From: Dissostichus eleginoides
Lineage: Eukaryota
Assembly (NCBI GenBank): GCA_031216635.1
Contig: CM062274.1
Coordinates: 26,356,913-26,420,912, forward strand
DNA length: 64,000 nt
Direction of reading: 5' to 3'
Below the pieces are notes generated by a model. The model was not told the DNA's origin, ran no database searches, and saw only the letters and a program-made list of their open reading frames with translations. A program made the translations under genes and the position numbers. The stretch's first letter is position 1, and the number at the start of each line of letters is the position of its first letter. Positions 6,071 to 57,954 of the stretch are shown piece by piece.

Positions 6071-9000
6071 TACAGTACAGATTAAATAATAGCCTCAATT
6101 TGCTTTTAAAAGGAATTGTACATCATGATAACTCCACTTCAGTGAATAACAATTAAACTGACATATTGTCTCGTTGTGAAGTTAAACCACTGTTTCAGTC
6201 AACAAAGAGCTAACAGTCTGACTGCCTGTTCCCATCAGCCATTGCAGCTCTGCACCGCCGTTCTTCTTCTCAGTGGTCTTCTTGTCAGAGTTAGTTGGCA
6301 ATATGACTGGCTTTGTTTGCTCATTATGTAAAAACTAGACAGCCATTACAGTAAAAACAGGCTTCTTTTAAGCGCTCTCAACTACATTAAATAAATAAGT
6401 GAGAGATTAGGTGTTTAACCACAAGGGCTTAATTTAGCCCTGCAAATTGTAGCTGTCATTATTTTTTTTAGCCTTTGAACTTTCTAACTTGTTAGAACAT
6501 AAATGCTATTTAAAGATCGAGTCGTACATGTCTTTAACACTGAACAAAGCACATAATGAACTAAAAACCAACCAAGCTAAATAAGCTTTTTCATTTTCCA
6601 CCGCAATTAAGCATTGGAATAAACACACTTTTCGAAACCTTTAGACACTCAAGCATTTAGATACTACCTGAGCAACCATATAAAGTAGTTTAACAGGCAC
6701 TTGCCATTAAACTTCTAGCCAATAGCCAAAACCTTTCTTTTAAAACACTTATTGCACCCAATTCTTCAAATGGTTGCATATTAGTTAGCAGTGTTCCCTT
6801 AACATTAAGACATTATTTGGTTGAAATTAACGGACCCAGCCTGTGCGACGACAGGTATCAAACAGTGAAGATGGAAAGCCACTGCAAATACAAAAAAACA
6901 CAAAACCAAAACAAAGTGTTTAAAAATGTATGGCAATATTTCAATATATCTCGCAACATCATACTCACTTTATTTGAATTAGTTGCATCTATAAAAAGCT
7001 CCTCTTACTTCCTTCATGCACTGTTGGTTAATAGTGTCCATCTATAGCAAACACAAAATGTAAAAAGTTGAACCTGAAGCACAGGATGTTTGCTGGTTAC
7101 ATCGAACAATCTGAGAAGCCTTATCTAGACATTGTCTAAAAAAAAGGGCAATCACTTTCAAAAAATGCTTCGCAGGTGATTGAATTATCACAGTTAGTCA
7201 CCAGTGAACTCTAATCAATAAGATACATGACCAAAACTCAAAGAAAAGTAACACCCACCATCACAATTTGTTTATGCTCGAAATTCGCCGAGTGCAGTTG
7301 TGGGAGGGATAACATTAGAAAATGACATTCTCTTTTATGTTTGCTTTAAACAACTTTCAAATGTTAGTATACATGTAGTTTAATTAACAGAGGAGCCTTT
7401 GATACAGAAGGGACCAACATGAGAGTTTGTGAGATGTGCAGCAGCTTCCTCCCCGCTGACCAGCTCTCCAGAGATGTGCGCCTCCTTCGGGAAACGCTGG
7501 CTGCTGCTAGTCCTCTCTCTCTATTCTCCATACTGTCACAAGCATCTGGTTTCTCTTTCATTTAGTATAGGAGACGAGCAAGTGAAAAGACAAAATAATT
7601 GCTTCTTAGGGTTTTTTAAATGTTGGCTTTGCATTGTTTGATCTTGAAAGATGTGAAAGACATGGGTCACTACTGAATCAAGATTTGGAAATGACCAATG
7701 TCACACAAAAGTGACTTTGAAATCTAATCGAACTTTAACATGCATAGCGCCTTTACACTGACAAATCCAAAGAATTGAAGTAAAACGAACAACAATTGTA
7801 CTGAATCCAAACATTCATTTATGTATAATGCAAAACTCCCTTGCAGTACTTATTCAAAACATGTCATGAGTTATTTATTTAGTGCAGTGTTTCAGACCAG
7901 CTGTTGTTTCTGGATGAACTTGGAGTTGGAACAACATTTTGAGCAGTGCTAACATTTAGGGTCAGGAACTCATCCCACAGCGGGGTGAGTGCGGTGAAGC
8001 AAAAGCAGAATTCATTGTGATTGCTACACAAAAGTTAAGGTTTGTTAAGGTCTTAGAGTCTTAAAAAATAAAGTTGTTGTCCAGAGTCGACACATCCTTT
8101 CAATCAAGCTGGGCATGACCTGGGATAAGCTCATCTTTTTCGAAAAATCTTACACAGGATAAACAAGGTGGAAAATATGTTCACTCCCCTTTGAAGAGTA
8201 GGAGAGACTATTATAGATAGTAAGTTCTGGAAAAATGATAATTATGATAGATCTATATGTGTCACACTTCTTTTGGTGTGATCATATTGTTCACAAAGAA
8301 ATACCGACAGATCTGCGGTCATACCAGCTTTGATGCTATTTTCTACAATACCTGCATGTTAATAATTCCTTTGGATGACAGATGGCATTCATCACTTTTG
8401 TGGGATTGTGTGAACCATTTTTCTGAAATAGAAAGGTAACACCAAAGGTCCACAGTAGTGCTTGTTCATCATTAGAAATTCAATCTGGTATTTTCAAGTG
8501 AAGAGCCTGCAGTTTGTGAAGAGAGGATCATCAGTAAAGCACGGTAAGCTGTCGGTGTTTATCTAAAGACAGTGCACTGTGCAACGTTTCAGATCAATGT
8601 GCCTTAGTGGTGTGAATATGATGAAGGGAAGGTCATCACGAACAAATCTGACTATTCTGAATTGTAGATACAACGTGAAAAAAAATGACCTTCGAGAGGG
8701 ATCTCTGCTAATGCTTCCATTGAAACCCTCTGACGTGCTCCTGCATTGTCTCATCCTCCTCTCTCAGCCTTGCTAATAACATTATGACTAAATATTTTCC
8801 CTTTTTTTTGACAATAACATGGATGGATGTGAAGGTCATTTATCATAGTGGTGACTGCCTAATGCTATCAGCTCCCGTGGCAGGTTTTAATCATCCTCTT
8901 TAGGATAAAGCTGGTGGTATATTATCCAATACTGCACATCTTGCAGAGTAGGAAATGTTATTAAAAAGTTGCAAAGCTTGTAGATTGTGAGGCTTGCTAA

Positions 9001-21626: not shown

Positions 21627-23331
21627 TTAAAGAAAAAAGCTTAACGGCTTTGACTAAATCCACATTTTAATTTGCTTTCTATTCTTACATACCAGGGATG
21701 CATATTCATTTTAACTCTACCTTTCTGTAGTAAGATTTATTTTATTTTCCCTGAAGTTTATTGATTTTCTGAACAGTATTATATGCTTGGGCTCTATTTA
21801 ACTTCCCAGCCAGAAGTTGCTTGCAATGCAGTTTTCATGAGGAATAAAAGCAGCATGAATTGGTGTCCGTTTTGACATGAAATGGGTCTTGTGCTCTAAT
21901 TAGATGCTAAATCCTCAGTGAATCTGGCCTTCAGTCAGTATTGTGTGCTGTAATAACCTTGAGTTTTGAACATGTCAAGCATCATTGGCAGAGATGTTTG
22001 GCATGAACAGCCTTTATACAACAAACCAGACTGATGAAGCTTCTATACACACAGACTCCTACTCTCCAAAGCCTTTTCTTTGTCTGCGCTCCGGGGCTTT
22101 GGGAAGAGATTGACTGCTGCTGCAGCTGTTGACAGACTACATTCTCCCTGCAGCTGCTGGGAAAGCACAGAAGAAGTAATGTGACATCCTTTCTCTGGCT
22201 GCCAGAAGATGCCTGAAACTACAGAGAGCTTTTTCATCTCTTACCCTGAAACCAACAGCACCTCCCCGCAGCCTTTCCTGTCCCAACTAATGCGTTTCGG
22301 CTTCACACTTTGATCATCTCTCATGGTCGCCTATCCTTTTGAACCACCACTAATTGTTTTTTTGCCTCTGTGGACTATCCATGTTTTTCACATCGGCGTG
22401 CTTTTTCTTTGATTCCAACCACCGTGGTACCCACATTTACTTGTTTGTTGATGTATAAATCACTAATCAAACCAATGAGAGCTGGATCTCTTGTTTATTG
22501 TTATTGCATCAATACAAATTAATAAAATGTAAAATATGAACAAGCAGGGTTCCAAGCAGAAAATCAATTAAAGGTCCCATGTCATGCTTTTCTGGTTATT
22601 ACACGTCCCCTTGTGTGTTATGAAGGTTTTTCTGCATGTAAACGGTCTGCAGAGTAAAAAACCCTCAAAGCACACCCTGTAGCGAGTAAAACTCTAACAC
22701 AGAAAAGACCTGTCTATGCTGCCCCAGAACGCCTCGTTGGAGATTATCTTTTTCCATTTGTTTCTTCCGGGAACCGCATGATGACATGTGGTTTCCGGAA
22801 CCAAAATGGAACAATCCGCGGAGCTCCTCACACACCAGGACCTTTAGCGTACATTTTCAACTAACAGGGAGTCCCATTGACTTGCATAGAGCTCCCTGGT
22901 TGGTAATAGACGAGTTGGGATCGCGGAGAAATGCTCTCCGCAGACCCATTCTCACAGCATTTATAAACTGGACGCATTCATAGGAAAGCACAAATTAATC
23001 ACGGACAGTCAATACGGATTCAGATCAAACAGATCAACATCACTGGCAATTATGGAATCAATTGAGGATATCACAGATGCCCTTGAACACAACAAATATG
23101 CAGTAGGGATTTTTATAGATATTAAAAAAGCTTTTGACACAATCAACCATAACATCCTAGTATATAAATTAGAAAGGTATGGTATCAGGGGTTTAGTTTT
23201 AGACTGGATTAAAAGCTATTTAGCAATAGACAGCATGTGAAGCTGGGAAATGACTGTTCTTCATGTTTGGACATTGCTTGTGGTGTCCCCCAGGGGTCAG
23301 TGTTGGGTCCTAAATTGTTTATACTGTACAT

Positions 23332-24245
23332 CATGGGTGGCAATAGGTGGCCCGCGGGCCATTGGGGCCCGCCAGCAATAATATTTGGCCCGGAAAATTA
23401 TTTTGAGAATAAAAATAAATATTATTTTGAGATTTTTTTTTTACAATTAGGACCGACAGTCACACACATATAGGCTATAATGTCCGAATAGAGAATCTAC
23501 CTACACCTGAAGAATGCTTATTGTACTTGTATCCATGTTGAGAGTGAATGACACACAGCACAGGCACAATCTGGCAGCGGGGTGCACTGACGCTGATAGT
23601 GGATCAATAGGTGGACAGCGCGTGGTGCTGAAAGAGCCAACATGCGGTTTGTGGTTTGAAAACAATAACACCAGCTCACTAAATCATTCAAATGTAATTT
23701 TTACTTATATGTGAACATGTAACAAAGTTCAGTCAAGACATTGGCAACAAAATCGGAGAAGCCGCCTGATCATGGAGGGCGAGGGGTGGTGGTGCATATG
23801 CTGCCACCCCAGCTGCTGCCCCAGTTGGCAGCTTTGTTTTGAAAGAAAAGTTTTGGCTCATCGGACATTTATGAGAAAATCCCTAATTTCCGAGTGCAAG
23901 TGAATGCAGCACAAGACGCGAGCCTTGTAACCCCTACCCCGGCCCTGGCCCGAGCGTGGAAATGTGATTGTCATTTGAACGGGATGGCGCAAAACGAGAT
24001 GCATTCGGTCTACATTGACAGAGAAGAGACTGTCATGTTTGGCTGTACTCAGCATTGATTCAAAATGCACTAAAGCTTTGGATCTTAATAAGTTTGTGAG
24101 CAGGGGTGGACTGGGCATCTGTAGAATCTGGAAAATCACAGAACGGCAACGCAGCGGCACCGCAGCGGCACCGCAGCGAGGCTCCCCCGTTGACAGTTCA
24201 CTAGCACACCCCCCCCCCGAGGCCAAATATAATTGCCGACCCCTG
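23332..24245. mobile_element. Non-autonomous hAT-like element (914 bp) with an 8-bp target-site duplication (TSD) CTGTACAT, nested in the LINE RT
   Basis: The identical 8-mer ctgtacat lies at 23324-23331 and 24246-24253. The termini are CATGGGTGGCAAT / ATTGCCGACCCCTG (rc CAGGGGTCGGCAAT). Joining the flanks restores the continuous RT codons LGPKLFILYINDICRV. Confidence 0.7.
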
Positions 24246-25126
24246 CTGTACATCAATGACATCTGTAGAGTATCCAATGTACTGAGGCTAGTTTTGTTTG
24301 CTGATGATACAAATATATTCTGTTCGGGGGAGAATTTAGAACAGCTAGTGGAGAACATAGACAATGAAATGCACAAATTAAAAACATGGTTTGACAAAAA
24401 TAAACTATCATTAAACTTGAGCAAAACAAAATTAATGCTGTTCGGTAAACATAGAACAAAAACACAAATGCAAATAAAAATAGATGGGGTTGAAATTGAA
24501 AGAGTCCATGAAATTAAATGTCTTGGGGTAATAATAGATGACACAATAAGTTGGAAATTACACATAAAACATGTACAAACAAAGCTGTCAAGAAGCATTT
24601 CCATACTAAACAAAGTAAAACAAGTTCTAGATCAGAAATCACTTTGCATTCTCTACTGTTCACTAGTCTTACCATATCTGAATTACTGTGCTGAAATCTG
24701 GGGCAATAACTACAAGAGTTCTATACATGCAGTATCTATTCTACAAAAAAAAGCCATACGAATCATTCACAATGCCAAATACCTTGATCACACTAACGAA
24801 TTATTCCTGCAGTCAAAATTGTTAAAATTCACAGACCTGGTAGAATTCCAAACGGCACAAATCATGTTCAAGGCAAATCATAACGTTTTACCAGGAAACA
24901 TCCAAAAAGTATTCACTGGGTGGGGGGATATAGTTCAAGGAGACAATTTCAATTGGAAATTCATAGGGTCCGTACAACCAGAAGAACTTTTTGTATCTCA
25001 GCCTGTGGAGTGAGACTATGGACCAGTGTGAACGTGGAGCTAAAGCGATGTCCAGACATTAACCAGTTCAAGAGGAAATACAGAGAAATAATTTTCTCGA
25101 GGTACAGGGATGGGGAAGGTGTTTGA

Positions 25127-38650: not shown

Positions 38651-39400
38651 AGGGCCCATGTCATGGCCATTTCCACTGATCATAATTCCATTGTTGAGGT
38701 CTACTAAAATAGATTTATACAGATAGATTTTGTGCATTTTTCCAAACTCACATTGGTTTCGCATACAGCATCTCTGTAAAGTATGTGTATTCAGCAGTAT
38801 TCACTCTCTCCACTAAATGGCTCGTTGCAGCTCTTGCCCCCCCTCCCTGTGAGCACAGTGTGCTCTGATTGGTCGGGACGTTGTGAATCGCGCTGAGCTC
38901 CGTGGAGGTGTGGTTTCCTTGTTTAGCGATACACAGCGAAACACAGCCAAACTCATCCTGAGCACACACAAACTCACAGCCGAAGTAAAAACAATAAGTG
39001 TGGCTTGATATTGAGTAAGAAAAAGGTTGATAAACGCTGTGAGAATGGGTCTGCAGAGAGAATTTCGCCGCGATCCCAACTGTCTGTTATCAGCCTGCAG
39101 CCAGGGATGAGAAATCAGCAGAGCTGGACGTAACGTAACGGCTCCACGGATTGGTCCATTTGGTTCCGGGTACGAGCTGACGTCAGCTCGTACCCGGAAC
39201 CAAACGGACCCATCCGTGGAGCAAAGAAAGAAACTGAGAAATCTCCAACGAGGCGTTTTGGGGAGGAATTTCCTATGTTAGAGTTGTACTCGCTACAGGG
39301 TGTACTTTGAGGGTTTGTGACTCTGCAGACCGTTTACATGCATAAAAACCTACATAACACACAAGGTGACGGGTAACCGGAAAAGCATGACATGGGACCT
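38651..39400 (-). mobile_element. Intact MITE family B copy (750 bp) with TTAA TSD
   Basis: ttaa|AGGGCCCATGTCATGG ... CATGACATGGGACCT|ttaa. It is collinear with the split copy at 22572 and 25901. It contains an 84-bp palindrome. Confidence 0.8.
39141..39224. repeat. 84-bp near-perfect palindrome centred on TGACGTCA inside MITE-B
   Basis: gctccacggattggtccatttggttccgggtacgagctgacgtcagctcgtacccggaaccaaacggacccatccgtggagc. The inner 46 bp are a perfect reverse complement. Confidence 0.85.
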
Positions 39401-44325: not shown

Positions 44326-46217
44326 GATGAATCCTTATGAAGCTCTGAAGCTTTCCGGCCAAGTGGTTCACAAAAGGGATCATCTCATGAGGCTTCATTT
44401 GAACACAAACCCCCCTGTTGGTCAAAGTGTGTAAAACAGGCAGATTTGAATTAGATACAATAAAAAAAAAAATAAGATCCATGATGCAAAAGCCTTTATA
44501 TATATGTTAGGAGATGTGTGAAGTGATTTAATTTTTTTTATTTAGTTTTATTGTAATGGAATACCTTTTTAAAGTAATCCTCTCAACTCTGCTTATGTGT
44601 GTTGAGTCTGCAGTGTTTGAGCCCTGTGACTGCAGATTGAATCTACTAAAAGCATTGTAGGATTATTTTGTCCCAATATGCTAGATGACAGTTTTCAGGA
44701 CACAATGAAGGTCTTACACTATTCACAACTGACAACAAAGCAGGGAGATGCCTCTGCAGGAAAAAATCAAACTTGAGGATATAAAATAAAATAAAAAATC
44801 TGGTATGTAAGGGAAAACATTAGTTTCTAAAGGATTTAGTGCCAAAATATGTCAGATTAAGGCAACAAATTAATAAAAGAAAAATTGCAAAACATAGGAA
44901 AAGGTTGTTGTCCAGAGGTGGACTGTAACTAGGCATATTTTGTTAGGCTTTGTTCACATTTTATGCAACTTTATGCGTCTAATCTACACCTTAGGCTAAA
45001 ATAGGACATTTTATAGATGGCTTGTCCCTGCATGTAGCTGCTTGCATCTTTACAGTTTCCCCTTGCCTCACCAGCTCTGTCATCTTCAGGATTAATTACC
45101 TTGAAGCTTGTTAATTCCCTTGGGAGTGACATAAATACCTAACAGCTCTCTTACATTCAACAACATTGTTAACGCTTTCAAAAGTGCATTAATTAGCAAG
45201 ACCAGGAGACGAAATGTAGTCATCATAATCTAGATCTTAAACTATAAAAAAATGTCTTTAATCTTATTTTAATTTGATTCAAAAGCCAATTACCGACCAA
45301 GTGTAATTTTTTTGAGTTCTTTTTTTAATCACACAGGAACCTCCCAAGCCGCCAATAATTTGGTATTCTTTGTGATAATTGCCATTCTTTGATTTCTGAG
45401 GATAAAAAAGTGTAAAGAGCGCCATGCAATGTCGAAACAATATGTGCAAAAACTGTAGTTTTATATATTACTCAAATCTTTCTTGAAAATGAAATCACTG
45501 ATACAGTGTTATCATGTTTTAAAAGTTTGTCAGATCAAAAAGAGAAAGAAAATTAAAGTCTGTAATACCAATTATGCTTATAGTGGGAGTATGATATAAG
45601 GTCATACAGTATAGGAATATATCTCATATTTAAACAAGAATTACCAGTGTCCTTGTGCAAATGAGAAACAGCTTCTAGCTTTTTTGATCACAGAATTAAA
45701 GCAAGTTTCAAATCCACTAACTGTACTTCCTTGTGAGTGCTCATGCTTTAAAGTGGTTGTGACACGGTTTTCCCCCATCATCCAAACCATTAATTTCAGT
45801 AAATAATGTCCCCTTGAAACCGTTACTGAAGTGATTTTTGAAAATGTGTACTTTGATAACCGTTAATCTGCCCTTCAATGTGACCATATTCTGGATCTTC
45901 TCTGGGTCTGCTCTGGGATTCTTAAACTCCCGCGAAAAGGTGTGCCGCGTCACAGAGGGAACACGAACGCTTCCGGAGTCCAGTATCTGTATGCAAACAA
46001 ACGATGGCGCACACAGCAGCAAGCTCCGACTGCGATTGTAGTTTAATTTTGAATGTGTCTGAGAGCTCATATGAGGATGAAGCATCTGATAGTGATAGCC
46101 TCGTAGACGATATTGACTATATGCCCTACAGATTCGAACCATATGCCTCTGAATCGGATGAAATTAACTCCGAGTCGGACAGTGGAGACGACAACCCCCC
46201 CGACTCTTTCCCTCCCT

Positions 46218-46221
<4 letters not shown>

Positions 46222-46276
<55 letters not shown>

Positions 46277-46279
46277 ACA
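46222..46279. repeat. (CA)n microsatellite of about 28 units, inside the THAP element and just 3' of its splice donor
   Basis: Direct reading. Confidence 0.9.
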
Positions 46280-46324
46280 GAGTATCCTAAAAAACACATC
46301 ACGTTTAAAGGTTGTTGTTCTTAC

Positions 46325-46723
46325 CTGAGTTTTCTCTTGTTGCTCGAAGTAGGCACTTCGGGGGCGTTTAGCTGGGGGGTTGGCGAAGTCTTTGCGGCCT
46401 TTACGGATTTGGGAAGGCGTGGGAAAGAGAGTAGGCACTGCTGACGGCTTCAGAATCCGTCTTCGCGAAAAATCAATCCCAGTTTCAGCCATCAACAAAG
46501 GCCTTTCCTCGAAATTCTCGGCCAGAAAGTGGGCGCTGCATATGTAGGTCGATGTGGGGTTCATCACAGACCAGCCAGCCCTTGTGTTCGGCACGTTTTT
46601 CTCCCATGTGCGCTGACGCTTGACATCCGTTGGAAAGCTATGTATGCTGATGTTAAGTTCCTCATTTGCTGTATTGGAACAGCCAGACACAACGCATCGT
46701 CGAACCATCTCTACGCGTGACAA
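46325..46723 (-). CDS. THAP-type zinc-finger DNA-binding domain exon (first coding exon) ending at a CAG|GTAAGA donor
   Basis: M(SRVE)MVRRCVVSGCSN..ISIHSFPTD..RQRTWEKNV..W.P..YICSAHF..RRILKPSAVPTLF has the THAP signature: C-x4-C ... C-x2-H, FP, W, P and AVPT(I/L)F. The likely start is the MV.. Met at 46708. The frame ends in phase 0 at 46325, immediately before gtaagaac on the minus strand. Confidence 0.7.
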
Positions 46724-46900
46724 ATCCCTTCTGTCCCTGTCTGGCTCAATGGGAGCAGAATAAATATGGCCCTTTGTGACGCACTTCCGCCTTCGTCCCG
46801 AAAAAGGAAACTGAGTGATGGACTTTTCCCGCGATATTCGAAATTATTGATATTTATCAATACGGTATCGCAAATTCATTTTTAAACTGATGGTTCGAGA
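46724..46900 (-). promoter_or_regulatory. Putative promoter/5' flank of the THAP exon, with an E2F-like TTTCCCGCGA site and a GGAAGTG (ETS-like) site
   Basis: On the minus strand, atatcgcgggaaaagtcc and ggcggaagtgcgtcac lie 60-130 bp upstream of the ATG. This is inference only. Confidence 0.25.
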
Positions 46901-47879
46901 TGACTAGTAGCCCAACATTGCATTGCACAACAGTAGGTGGGATGGTGTCACAACCACTTTAAGAATTCTTCTTCCTCCTCATTTGGATGATAATACAGAG
47001 TTGGCTCTTCTCACAGAGGAAAAAGTTATCTTGCAGAAGAACTTGAGCTTTGAGGTGTAAAATTTCGATATGCTTTCATCGACTGTTGAACATGTAAAAA
47101 TAGAAGTGGAAAATGAGAACGGGCCACTGACAAAAAGATACGAACAAATAAAAGCATAGAGCCGGAGAGAAAACAGGGAAGAGAGGGATTGATGTTTCTT
47201 TTTTGTTCAGGCAGTTCCTGTGACTCACCGAGAGAACTGTGAGCTTTTCAATTCCCTCCAGATACCCACATTTCTGATATAGGTTCTTATTATTTTCAGA
47301 CTTCTTTATATTCAAAATGAAACTTATAATCATTGTAATATCATTTCGATAAGGGTAGGGCACTGAGTCTGACTTAAAGCACACTTCATTAAGCTTTTCA
47401 TCACAAAATTAGCATCCATCCTCACAGAGAGCCCAGCATGTTGTCTGGGATCCAAATATGCTTCAAAGGATTCATACAAAAAAAGACAGAGAGACAAAAG
47501 AAGATGTACTGGTTGATGGCTTCGTGGATGTATTTTCTTTGTATTTTCTACTTTAAATTATAAAAACAAAGCCTTAAAAAAGACGCTATAGTACAGGTTT
47601 CAATAAAAACACTATACAATGGTGCTATTGCATGTTACTGTCCACATCAAACTACATAGATACTGTAGATAACCCTAACTCTAGTAAACAGGGTGCTTAA
47701 AATCAACAGGATCAACCATTTGCCAATAGCCGTGTTTAATCTCCACAAACAGAAAATGTTTCCCCACACTTCGACGGGATATATTTTAACTTTTATAATA
47801 TTACATTTATTGCGTTTTTACACCATATTGGTATTACAAAATATTTTTGACAGAACAGCAAGACAAGGGTAGGTAGCAC

Positions 47880-54935: not shown

Positions 54936-56302
54936 GTTTAAATGATTTGTTATCGGTTGTGATCATATTCTAAAGATGTTTGGATTATTGAAAAGTATAC
55001 AGCTCCCTTTCATCTGAGTGTTGAGAGCTGTATCCATAAATTCATTTTGTGCTCAAAGTGCATCAGATGGATGCTTATAACTTCAACATTTAAAAAAACA
55101 TCTTCCCGGGGGTGCATGCCCCCGGACCCCCTTGGGGATGTGAGGTCCACCCCGAAATAAAGCAGGTTAAAATAATTAAATTGCATACATGTTCTTTTAG
55201 TAAACACTGCAAACGGGTCCCACAGACCCAAACAGCACACAAAGGTTAAAGGTAAGCATATAATAATGTTAAAATGTGCTAAATATATACACTGCAAAAA
55301 ACAAAAAAGAGGAGTAAAAGTAGCTCACGACTTGTTTTATTTTTTGAAAGTAGCTCTCATCCTAAAAAAGGTATAGAATACAAAATACATTTCAAAAGAA
55401 AAAAACATGCATCGTGTTCAGTTGCAAATTTGCCTTTAAATGAGCAAAGCCTTTTAGTGATTCAAAGCGTAAAAGGAACAGACTGTGGAGAAAATGAAAC
55501 TAAGAGGAGTGGTACAATCAAAAGATCTCAAGGACACTTGTAGTTTTAGAGAGGTCACATCTGTAATAGACTAATGTAGTTCTCACCTTCACAGTTTATA
55601 GGAGCAGCCTTGAGGGAAAAGGCCAGCGAGAGTGAGCCGAGCTCTGGGCTTCGGGGAGGCCTGTGTGGGCTACATGCTGAAAGGGTGCCCTTCATTTCTA
55701 GACAGCATGCCCTTTTTAAAATACAATCATAGATAGAGGGTGAGTGGCAGTCTCACTGTTGTCTGTCCCAATTGCTACACTAGGTCACAAACGTGCCCTC
55801 AAGAGCCTCATTTGTGCACACTCATCCGGAGTCCCACGTGGGGTTAGATTTAAGCAGGAAGAGCCATTTGCGTAAGGATAGGAAAAGACTGTAAGTTCCT
55901 TTTTCAGTTAAATAGTAGACACTTTTCTTTCGGCTATCACTTGCTGTGCATAGCCGTTTTGTTTGAAACAGGGACCAGCTGATTCTGCAGTAGTCGCTAA
56001 CCTGCCAGTCGGACCAATGACTATCCCAACAGAGATCTCAAGAAGGTCACACCGAATAGACGAATGATGACAGCTGGGATAGAAAAGGATAAGCCAAGTC
56101 TCCTCCGTCATCAGGGGCATCATACGATCACTGGCTAAGAAAAACGATGAGCTAATCACGCTGGTGGTTAGTCAGACCGATTATCTGGGGTGAAGTTTAA
56201 TGTGCTTTATGGAAACATGGCTGCATCAGGATGGATATGAGCACAACCCTTCCATTGATGGCTTCCGGATTGTTCTGGTTTAAAGGGATTGCACCACCGT
56301 GT

Positions 56303-56652
56303 TCATCATGTCTACACCATGAGTCTGAGTCTTCATCATGTCTTCATCATGAGTCTGGGTCTTCATCATGTCTTCACCTTGAGTCTGAGTCTTCATCATG
56401 TCTCCACCCTGAGCCTGAGTCTTCATCATGTCTCCACCCTGAGCCTGAGTCTTCATCATGTCTACACCATGAGTCTGAGTCTTCATCATGTCTCCACCCT
56501 GAGCCTGAGTCTTCATCATGTCTACACCATGAGTCTGAGTCTTCATCATGTCTCCACCCTGAGCCTGAGTCTTCATCATGTCTTCACCTTGAGTCTGAGT
56601 CTTCATCATGTCTTCACCTTGAGTCTGGGTCTTCATCATGTCTTCATCATGA
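56303..56652. repeat. 30-bp minisatellite, about 11.5 tandem units
   Basis: The unit is tcttcatcatgtct(a/c/t)ca(c)c(a/c)tgag(t/c)ctgag, with variants tctacaccatgagtctgag, tctccaccctgagcctgag and tcttcaccttgagtctgag. It generates the repetitive ORFs 56231-56701, 56280-56639 and 56289-56816. Confidence 0.9.
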
Positions 56653-57954
56653 GTCTTCAGGGGTTCTCTTTCCTATGGCAGGCGTCCTGCCTTGTTTTTA
56701 GATCAACTTCTTGTGTTTCTATCATTATTTTAATGAACCTATCAGTATTTAAATCATTTTTTTGTTTTTATTCTAATATTGTACAACTGTCAAAACCCAA
56801 TTTCCCCCCGGGATAAACCAAGTATTCAGATTATGAGTGCCTAAACATGACAATTAAGTCACCATGAGTGGATATCGCAGAGAAAACCAATGAAATAAAT
56901 TGATTGTTAATAGCGTTTCCTAATGTTAATTAACAACTTAATCAGGCAGCATTGCTATGTCCCTTTAATAACAGATATGCTGTTTCTAATTAGCAGAATG
57001 TAAATGTACAGTCATTTCTAAAGACAGGGTTAACTAGATGCAGCTGAGACTCATTTATTATGCTTTATCGATGCGGTGGCAGTATTTTAAGCAGTGAGGA
57101 AAACAATGTTTTGTTTTCCTGCTTCACAAACTTTGGCAAAGCTTGGGAACGTGCTGTGATTGGTAAATGTCAGGTTGGCTGAAATGTAACACTTATGCGA
57201 ATATTTTGGGATTGGATCGGAACACAATCTGCTTTTAGTAAAGAGCAGGCACATTCAAAGTTTATAAAATGAATCCAATTATTATTTTCTGATTTGTTTG
57301 AACTTTGCTTCAAGACATGTTTTACACATCTTTAGTTATATACAAGTAAAGCTTTAAAGGTTCTATTAATATGTGTGCCGAGACACTCTTTATGGCCCAT
57401 TCTCAGGGTAATCCTTGCATTTATATGTTTTCATTCTTGTGTGACATTGTTAAGTGTTAAAGAAACTCACTATGTTCACTCTATTATATGTCTCATACTG
57501 TATGTCTGAATATACGCTGTATGTATCCTTCACCCTACATGCCCTAAGAGCCTGTCTCTTATTGACGTGCAAACTAAAACATTTAGCACACCTTACCAAA
57601 GTGTGTTCTCAAGCCGAGGCTGGAAATACTCAGAAGGGGATCGGTATATTCTAGAATTACCGGAGCCAAATCCTAATGTTGTTGAATTTTCAATTAATGT
57701 TTTCTGATCGAGGCAGCCCACAAAAAACGGACTTGGTTATCTTTATGATGGGAATTTACAGTGATTCAATATATATGTAGGTTTCCTCGCTATGAAATGT
57801 TCTCAGATAGAAGGGTGTCGCCCTGACCATTGTCAGGCAATTATCTTATGGATGTTAGGGTTGTAATTAACACACTGTGCTTCCCCTTCTGTCTGCCCCC
57901 AACCCAACTTGGGACTGTAATGTGGATTGCCTTCCTTTCTGTGTCATCTGTATG

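Follow-up and report, generated by a model that had tools for sequence, protein, structure and literature searches.

A 1.2-kb TTAA-flanked element with a THAP exon in Dissostichus eleginoides is very probably an internally deleted Kol0 Kolobok transposon

Introduction

What is an intact exon encoding a complete THAP domain, with promoter-like motifs on one side and a consensus splice donor on the other, doing between two short inverted repeats flanked by TTAA? This question is raised by a 1.2-kb segment of Dissostichus eleginoides, contained in the 64,000-nucleotide stretch of contig CM062274.1 that we analyzed and that is called the window hereafter. An earlier note on this DNA had offered two answers: a TTAA transposon bearing a THAP domain, Kolobok being among the named candidates, that had become non-autonomous and kept only its first exon, or a mobile exon-trap cassette able to donate a DNA-binding exon to host genes.

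Kolobok elements have 5'-RR...YY-3' termini, in contrast to piggyBac (PMC9587614). The Kol0 lineage, to which Kolobok-1_XT, Kolobok-2_DR and Kolobok-1_BF belong (Kapitonov & Jurka; Kojima & Bao 2022, PMC9587614), encodes a second protein termed KolX that displays the P2X7 ballast fold (PMC9587614). The XKol elements of Xenopus are bounded by TTAA duplications and have ends starting with AG (Hikosaka et al. 2018, PMC6004289), and the T2-MITEs are short, non-coding, high-copy elements with a terminal AGGRR (PMC6004289).

Results

The element spans positions 45748-46962 of the window (1215 bp) and is delimited by a perfect 18-nt inverted repeat (45748-45765 and 46945-46962, 100% complementary), which has just two matches in the 64 kb when up to 3 mismatches are allowed, for a chance expectation of 0.08. 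This repeat is composed of TTAA and a 14-nt terminal inverted repeat (TIR), AGTGGTTGTGACAC. At the end that we call the KolX side, the TTAA at 45748-45751 is followed by the TIR at 45752-45765 (plus strand), which begins with 5'-AG; at the transposase side, the TIR, recognized by its inverted-repeat match, occupies 46945-46958 (minus strand) and the TTAA 46959-46962. The exact TTAA bracketing described earlier is thus present, but the TIR is shorter than the 15-16 bp first given, as the two arms diverge at position 15 (G vs C). The termini read 5'-AGTGG...CCACT-3' and are of the RR...YY type. Since TTAA is a palindrome, it could formally belong to the TIR; the identity of the two flanks and the behavior of the family suggest that it would be a target-site duplication, and the predicted empty site with a single TTAA would read ...CATGCTTTAAGAATTC....

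The same organization was found elsewhere. Units bounded by TTAA and TIRs lie in different flanks in Champsocephalus gunnari, G. acuticeps and D. mawsoni, and TTAA abuts all eight element ends observed (5 loci with differing flanks). A TIR sequence of its own characterizes the notothenioid family, in which two subfamilies can be told apart (AGTGGT/AGTGCT and AGAGCC): the two TIRs are matched within each element and differ between subfamilies (AGTGGT vs AGAGCC). The KolX-side TIR of the window element shares 13 of its 14 nucleotides with that of the D. mawsoni copy, AGTGCTTGTGACAC. At the G. acuticeps locus, the flanks of the two 5' ends are identical, which rules out separate insertions and points to a segmental duplication.

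On the minus strand, positions 46325-46708 correspond to the coding part of transposase exon 1, an intact frame of 128 codons encoding a complete THAP domain and a basic linker. The Pfam THAP profile is matched over positions 1-87 of 87 (E=6e-16), and the residues C-X4-C...C-X2-H, P, W and AVPTLF are recognizable in the sequence. The domain is complete, as had been noticed from the sequence alone, but the frame had been counted as 133 codons from an upstream TTG (46723), whereas the conserved ATG lies at 46708. Its 384 nt end in phase 0 at 46325, exactly as had been read, and GTAAGA follows at 46324-46319, so that the donor CAG|GTAAGA closes the exon. The dN/dS ratio of the exon is 0.5-0.6. 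A protein search with the THAP peptide gave 2 matches in all, which led to related loci; the peptide is 81% identical to one protein (P0001) and aligns from residue 1 of at least 20 proteins of 700-760 amino acids containing both THAP and DDE domains.

Upstream of this exon, positions 46709-46944 (minus strand) comprise the transposase 5' UTR, promoter and subterminal region, as delineated by an alignment of related copies (A1). The cluster of E2F-like and ETS-like motifs reported there is indeed present, with the E2F-like CGCGGGAAAA at 46824-46833 and the ETS/CRE-like GGCGGAAGTGCGTCA at 46777-46791 (plus-strand coordinates), and these columns are invariant in 3/3 copies. Downstream of the exon, the first 120 nt of transposase intron 1 (46205-46324, minus strand) could be assigned by alignment to the D. 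mawsoni copy L004. They include a (TG)n/(CA)n microsatellite of 29 units at 46222-46279; L004 contains this intron sequence at positions 8436-8526, where the (TG)n run is shorter. Comparison with the related sequences identifies the donor as the native exon-1 boundary of the transposase gene and the E2F/ETS-like motifs as its native promoter.

The other arm belongs to a different gene. Positions 45766-46003 (plus strand; alignment A2) contain the KolX-side subterminal region and the KolX promoter, 98.5% identical to L004, with conserved AACCGTTA repeats, a CRE-like CGTCA, an E2F-like TCCCGCGAAAA (45928-45938) and an ETS-like CTTCCGG (45970-45976). They are followed by a truncated KolX exon 1 at 46004-46204 (plus strand), identified by tblastn against C. 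gunnari KolX (residues 2-71, 78.6% identity, E=4e-27). The first 67 codons are left; they encode the acidic N-terminus with its PYRFEP motif. The deletion has taken away the ballast domain as well as the splice donor. The acidic plus-strand peptide of the earlier note is therefore real from 46004 onward, but its nature as the N-terminus of a second transposon gene had been missed, and the element retains parts of two first exons rather than one. On the other hand, we treated the minus-strand open reading frame 45741-46142, also mentioned in that note, as spurious, because it has no family match and runs antisense to a conserved exon and promoter.

The earlier note had asked for a longer relative with a DDE core, and such relatives exist in notothenioid genomes, with the same ends and with THAP as the first exon. 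The C. gunnari element is TTAA-flanked and 7262 bp long. The two arms of the window element are colinear with its positions 1-653 and 6793-7258 and align end-to-end with it (82% and 77% identity) as well as with the D. mawsoni copy (97.4% and 98.5%). The latter is decayed: it has lost 7 bp, contains a stop codon and is disrupted at its 5' end. We saw no intact autonomous copy of the subfamily of the window element. Pfam gave no match on single exons of the relative's transposase, and the family was assigned by BLASTP against the Repbase Kolobok cores taken from Data S5 of PMC9587614: the C. gunnari core shares 45% identity with Kolobok-2_DR (E=1e-64), 35% with Kolobok-1_XT and 38% with Kolobok-1_BF, and the segments GDGRADSPG, VTDRH, YDIWH (DxxH) and EGFHS are aligned. 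A Kolobok-type DDD/E transposase, recognized by its catalytic D, D and E and a C/DxxH signature, is thus encoded by the colinear C. gunnari element and not by the window copy. Among 432 homologues, many combine THAP with PF20700 in 700-760 residues. The full-length relatives also carry a convergent KolX gene with a P2X7 "ballast" domain; KolX assembled from locus L002 matches Pfam P2RX7_C (E=1.5e-18, 67.8 bits for a cut-off of 23.5) and residues 473-594 of the P2X7 structure 9e3m (E=2e-4).

Relative to the C. gunnari element, about 6.1 kb are missing from the window element. Local alignments on both sides of the D. mawsoni copy place the junction with base accuracy between 46204 and 46205, where KolX exon 1 is joined to transposase intron 1 with a 1-nt microhomology (GGGAGGGAAAGAG followed by TCGGGGGGGTTGTCG). 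The deletion breakpoints lie about 120 nt inside transposase intron 1 and at codon 67 of KolX exon 1. The element has lost its entire catalytic core as well as the KolX domain; it still has its two ends and two promoters, the complete THAP exon followed by the donor, and the (TG)n microsatellite of the intron. The (CA)n tract could be rejected as filler at the junction, since both the microsatellite and the GCGCGAGGGAGGGAAAGAG stretch behind it prove to be native intron-1 sequence when aligned to the D. mawsoni copy. No DDE-coding sequence was found anywhere in the 64-kb window. A scan of the JGI metagenomes, a collection that is not a fish genome resource, revealed neither a second occurrence of the junction nor a match to the conserved subterminal pattern.

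The window also contains a reverse-transcriptase open reading frame of a teleost, percomorph-like LINE, for which no near-identical protein was found.

Discussion

Altogether, these data make it very probable that positions 45748-46962 are a non-autonomous copy of a Kol0-lineage Kolobok element whose interior was lost by one deletion. The parent element is about 7.3 kb long and inserts at TTAA, with 14-nt TIRs starting with 5'-AG and two convergent intron-containing genes. One encodes the transposase, with the THAP DNA-binding domain in the first exon and the DDE catalytic core in later exons. The other encodes KolX, a small protein in which an acidic N-terminus is combined with a P2X7 'ballast' domain that binds zinc. 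Owing to the loss of the DDE core and of the KolX domain, the window copy is non-autonomous and would be unable to move alone. With its two TIRs and conserved subterminal regions preserved, it could be excised and reinserted at TTAA by a transposase supplied in trans by a full-length member of its subfamily. That the THAP frame is still intact is most likely due to the youth of this copy, which is just 1.5-2.6% divergent from that of D. mawsoni. The first of the two answers proposed earlier thus stands as to a THAP-bearing TTAA transposon of the Kolobok type, for which the full-length relatives provide the DDE transposase, but not as to the first exon being all that was kept, a piece of KolX exon 1 being present too.

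One could wonder whether the promoter, the THAP exon and its phase-0 donor form instead a mobile cassette that would splice into host exons and generate THAP-fusion genes. The donor CAG|GTAAGA is retained and the native acceptor deleted, so that any splicing from it would need foreign acceptors, and Kolobok transposases have been repeatedly domesticated in Xenopus (PMC6004289). However, donor and promoter alike belong to the ordinary make-up of the transposase gene and are conserved in full-length copies, and a single random internal deletion fully accounts for the architecture; we thus find no support for such a cassette and regard it as very improbable. A search for neighboring host exons, covering nine stop-free segments within about 8 kb on either side, gave no Pfam match. 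This lack of a recognized downstream exon also argues against a resident host THAP gene, of which the frame would be the first exon and the inverted repeat a coincidence. Such a gene would agree with an intact THAP frame provided with a promoter and a donor, but the inverted repeat far exceeds chance, the THAP exon of the relatives continues into a Kolobok DDE transposase, and the occurrence of the TTAA- and TIR-bounded unit in different flanks in three other notothenioids rules this reading out, leaving it with practically no likelihood. The same negligible probability applies to a non-autonomous element of piggyBac, another superfamily that duplicates TTAA. The TTAA flanks fit it, one gene model (P0024) has a piggyBac Pfam domain, and a KolX-like protein occurs in a few piggyBac families (PMC9587614). 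P0024, however, looks like a chimeric gene model, given its THAP domain at residues 244-366, the colinear full-length element has a transposase of the Kolobok type and not DDE_Tnp_1_7, and the AG...CT termini, a Kolobok signature in contrast to piggyBac (PMC9587614), rule piggyBac out.

Another hypothesis accepts the deletion and gives its product a function. P elements, which have an 8-bp duplication and 31-bp TIRs, belong to a class ruled out here by the 4-bp TTAA duplication and the 14-nt TIR. Small non-autonomous P elements nevertheless often encode repressors such as KP (PMC7776569), a precedent from another THAP transposon. By analogy, the deletion derivative, if transcribed from the transposase promoter that it retains, could yield a putative THAP-only protein, made of the 128 exon-1 residues and either a tail read through from the intron (213 amino acids in total) or a spliced tail, which would bind subterminal sites and damp transposition. 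The THAP frame intact over 128 codons, the conserved promoter motifs and a read-through frame running to 46067 speak for this idea. Against it, an intact frame is expected by chance at only about 2% divergence from the relative, the JGI metagenomes scanned contain no second copy of the deletion form, the protein search gave no protein with the junction-specific tail, and no dimerization motif was identified. We consider this hypothesis unlikely, and hold the same view of its extension, in which the mobile unit would spread itself through notothenioid genomes as a repressor of its own family, its product competing with full-length transposase at conserved subterminal sites such as the AACCGTTA repeats.

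The deleted Kolobok copy can be compared with several known systems. With Kol0 elements, the family shares the TTAA target duplication, the 5'-AG...CT-3' termini and the short TIRs, and the full-length relatives encode both a THAP and DDE (DxxH, H2CH) transposase, with 35-45% core identity to the Repbase references, and KolX with the P2X7 ballast fold; the window copy differs in having neither the DDE core nor the KolX domain. The TTAA flanks and the AG terminus are also those of XKol, and the TIR resembles that of XKol-A1 (AGTGATACTGACA vs AGTGGTTGTGACA). A parallel can be drawn with the non-autonomous derivatives of the XKol/T2-MITE system mobilized by Kolobok transposase, a mobilization that would hold here as well. 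The window element is nonetheless no T2-MITE: it begins with AGTGG, measures 1.2 kb and contains an intact 128-codon THAP exon and a KolX fragment. Like KP of Drosophila, it is a deletion derivative of about 1.2 kb of a THAP-transposase transposon that kept its ends, promoter and N-terminal THAP coding region; KP, however, belongs to another superfamily and encodes a THAP-containing repressor, a role that is putative for the window element.

The presence of a THAP exon in a box delimited by TTAA and TIRs is fully explained by the known architecture of Kol0 Kolobok elements, and we are dealing with an ordinary mobile-element remnant of a known kind, not with a new exon-donating cassette. A KP-like role as a repressor, if true, would be the sole part adding biology. 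The locus shows neatly, at base resolution, how a two-gene Kolobok is reduced by one internal deletion to a non-autonomous element of 1.2 kb. Antarctic notothenioids are further shown to harbor a Kol0 family comprising two TIR subfamilies, a finding that aids the annotation of transposable elements in these transposon-rich genomes and helps prevent THAP or 'P2X7-like' fragments from being mis-annotated as host genes.

Results

The repeat, the THAP frame and the splice donor that the earlier note had described in this region are all in place. The element (window 45748-46962, 1215 bp) is bounded by an 18-nt inverted repeat, 100% complementary (TTAAAGTGGTTGTGACAC, 45748-45765 and 46945-46962). 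With up to 3 mismatches permitted, TTAAAGTGGTTGTGACAC had no further match in the 64-kb window, its 2 matches being the element ends, for a mean of 0.08 in shuffled sequence. Once the TTAA is set apart, the TIR is 14 nt long, with a mismatch already at position 15.

With the THAP peptide as query, a protein search gave just two hits: P0001, 81% identical and located on a 1.5-kb ENA metagenome contig, and P0002 from Champsocephalus gunnari. At the C. gunnari locus (L002), the transposase-side arm of the window element (46315-46962) aligns with 10185-9533 at 82%, and the KolX-side arm (45748-46204; KolX is a second Kolobok gene) with 16790-16325 at 77%. The 7.26-kb C. gunnari interval carries TTAA and AGAGCCTGTGACAC on one end, and the exact reverse complement and TTAA on the opposite one; the window element represents positions 1-653 and 6793-7258 of this 7262-bp element. 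The ENA contig covers positions 35-1628 at 91% identity and is a fragment of a full-length-type copy. Using the C. gunnari interior as query, we retrieved loci from Gymnodraco acuticeps (L003) and Dissostichus mawsoni (L004 and L005).

The decayed copy at L004 shares 97.4% and 98.5% identity with the window element in its two arms, and its surviving end reads AGTGCTTGTGACAC followed by TTAA. Such closeness suggests that the window derives from Dissostichus or a nearby notothenioid. This near-identical copy is dead. At L004 8045-8320 it carries a 7-bp deletion after MVRRC and a TCG>TAG stop in the THAP exon, the 5' arm upstream of 8045 is replaced by unrelated sequence, and ~7 kb of additional sequence separates the transposase part from the KolX part.

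TTAA adjoins all 8 element ends, at 5 loci with unrelated flanks. Since the flank is common to both 5' ends in L003, these two represent one duplicated insertion. They lie at 8884 and 20585 of CADEHN010000598.1, ~11.7 kb apart with identical flanks, the result of a segmental or assembly duplication rather than two insertions. Two subfamilies, both present in D. mawsoni (L004, L005), differ at 3-4 TIR positions (AGTGGTTGTGACAC at window 45752-45765 and 46945-46958 versus AGAGCCTGTGACAC at L002 9537-9550 and 16773-16786). Within each complete element both ends agree, as expected if the ends are functional.

Alignment to both sides of L004 places the deletion junction at window 46204|46205, with 1 shared base. 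Of the transposase gene's intron 1, the donor and the initial 120 nt are kept; the other side of the junction falls inside exon 1 of KolX. The native intron-1 acceptor and all downstream sequence are absent from the element, and tblastn and blastn found the remaining parts nowhere else in the window. The kept intron stretch holds a (TG)n run followed by GCGCGAGGGAGGGAAAGAG. Because both also occur in L004, the (CA)29 at window 46222-46279 is an intronic microsatellite of the element itself that has expanded in the window copy; an origin as filler DNA was rejected. The run counts 29 units here and is much shorter and interrupted at L004 8478-8505.

The minus-strand THAP frame runs from an ATG at 46708 to 46325 (384 nt, 128 codons, phase 0). 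The 133 codons initially counted took in five codons from an upstream TTG; the frame itself is clean. The Pfam THAP model is matched in full (positions 1-87 of 87, E=6e-16). The frame ends at a CAG|GTAAGA donor that occupies the same place in every copy (CAG|GTAAAA in the other subfamily). In C. gunnari and G. acuticeps, gene models join this donor to an acceptor lying 102 nt further downstream. When the transposase-side arms of three copies are aligned, the E2F-like CGCGGGAAAA, the ETS/CRE-like GCGGAAGTG(A)CGTCA and a large part of the subterminal region are invariant. On the KolX side, TCCCGC[G/C]AAA and CGTCA are conserved, and the ETS-like TTCCGG occurs only in the window/D. mawsoni subfamily.

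The later exons of the full element's transposase gene, on the THAP strand, encode ...GDGRADSPGH...MVTDRH...YDIWH...EGFHS. By BLASTP against curated Repbase catalytic cores (Data S5 of Kojima & Bao 2022, PMC9587614), the core is 45% identical to Kolobok-2_DR over the whole 246 residues (E=1e-64), 35% to Kolobok-1_XT (E=3e-49) and 38% to Kolobok-1_BF (E=2e-44), with no significant match to KolobokE. The C. gunnari element is the longer DDE-bearing relative whose existence the earlier note had raised. A database search gave 432 homologues from fishes, amphioxus, molluscs, echinoderms, hemichordates and sponges, many of them 700-760 aa long with THAP and PF20700; over 20 of these homologues align, from their first residue, with the window THAP peptide (E as low as 1e-22). 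A Pogonophryne albipinna gene model (P0024) combines THAP (residues 244-366), the Kolobok PF20700 and the piggyBac domain PF13843, and is probably a chimeric model across nested transposons.

KolX is convergent to the transposase gene and has three exons in the full element. Pfam assigns the assembled protein to P2RX7_C (E=1.5e-18; 67.8 bits, cut-off 23.5); the protein also matches residues 473-594 of the P2X7 structure 9e3m and shows the pattern W-C-x-C-G-x-C...ECVCC...CIT.HPGF...AYRQ of the published KolX alignment. The acidic peptide at window 46004-46204 is KolX residues 1-67 (78.6% identity to C. gunnari). The minus-strand ORF 45741-46142, also listed in the earlier note, has no family match and is regarded as noise, because it lies antisense to the conserved exon and promoter.

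Several other repeats were observed. Subterminal AACCGT(T/G) motifs (AAACCGTTACTGAA at window 45822-45836, GATAACCGTTAATCTG at 45856-45870, the TIR-adjacent CACGGTTTT at 45762-45772, and TACCGTAT at 46862-46872 on the other arm) are almost invariant across subfamilies in alignments of both arms and are candidate THAP/transposase binding sites. The KolX-side arm contains 2.5 repeats of the 11-bp unit TCTGGGTCTGC (45890-45917), just downstream of a 10-bp insertion, GACCATATTC, that distinguishes the window/D. mawsoni subfamily from that of C. gunnari. Elsewhere, window 22890-25010 (+) holds non-LTR retrotransposon reverse transcriptase fragments (Pfam RVT_1; best matches teleost RT-domain proteins, at most 75% identity), and a tandem minisatellite at 56201-56816 produces long ORFs of repetitive sequence, such as SCLHHESESS repeats, in three frames. 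Stop-free segments at 22690-22980 (+) and 38816-39277 (-), the latter without Pfam match, encode a similar peptide (...PRWR...GSRRN.L.RPILTAFIN...), which suggests two oppositely oriented copies of another repeat family.

Discussion

Kolobok elements make TTAA duplications and, in contrast to piggyBac, have 5'-RR/YY-3' termini; a DDD/E transposase and KolX, which has the P2X7 ballast fold, are the two proteins of the original Kol0 group, that of Kolobok-1_XT (Kojima & Bao, PMC9587614). Kolobok transposases combine DDE, THAP and H2CH, and in Xenopus the full-length elements are flanked by TTAA and end in the TIRs AGCGATTCTGACATGG / AGTGATACTGACAGTA (Hikosaka et al. 2018, PMC6004289), visibly like the AGTGGTTGTGACAC of the window element. 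Every testable defining feature of Kolobok and Kol0 is found in the notothenioid family.

The earlier note had hesitated between a non-autonomous derivative of a THAP-bearing TTAA transposon and a mobile exon-trap cassette, whose THAP exon would be spliced to host exons. We find the former: a Kol0 Kolobok deletion derivative that retains the first transposase exon and a portion of the first KolX exon. The cassette finds no support. The E2F/ETS-like cluster and the donor are indeed present; being conserved across copies, and the donor being used by the relatives' gene models, they are the transposon's own expression signals and no purpose-built cassette. Nine stop-free segments tested up to ~8 kb away on either side yielded no recognisable host exon, and one deletion accounts for the entire architecture.

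A KP-like THAP-only repressor made by the window copy has a precedent (PMC7776569), and the intact THAP frame is the sole point in its favour here; we consider it very improbable. The window and D. mawsoni copies, 1.5-2.6% apart, point to a fairly recent common source, and at so low a divergence the open 128-codon frame needs no selection. Between subfamilies, the THAP-exon dN/dS of 0.5-0.6 indicates modest constraint, as is usual for transposase lineages.

For the Kolobok derivative, structure and homology are demonstrated, as is the fact that catalytic capacity has been lost. Lacking the transposase core, the window copy is a non-autonomous member. It probably arose by a single internal deletion, for example through abortive gap repair following excision, with which the 1-nt microhomology is compatible. 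It could be mobilised in trans only: an autonomous member of its subfamily would have to supply a transposase that recognises the TIRs and subterminal sites still present. Annotations of notothenioid genomes routinely include Kolobok-T2 elements (PMC12527291), and the window element adds a new member, or at most a new family, to an already well-described type.
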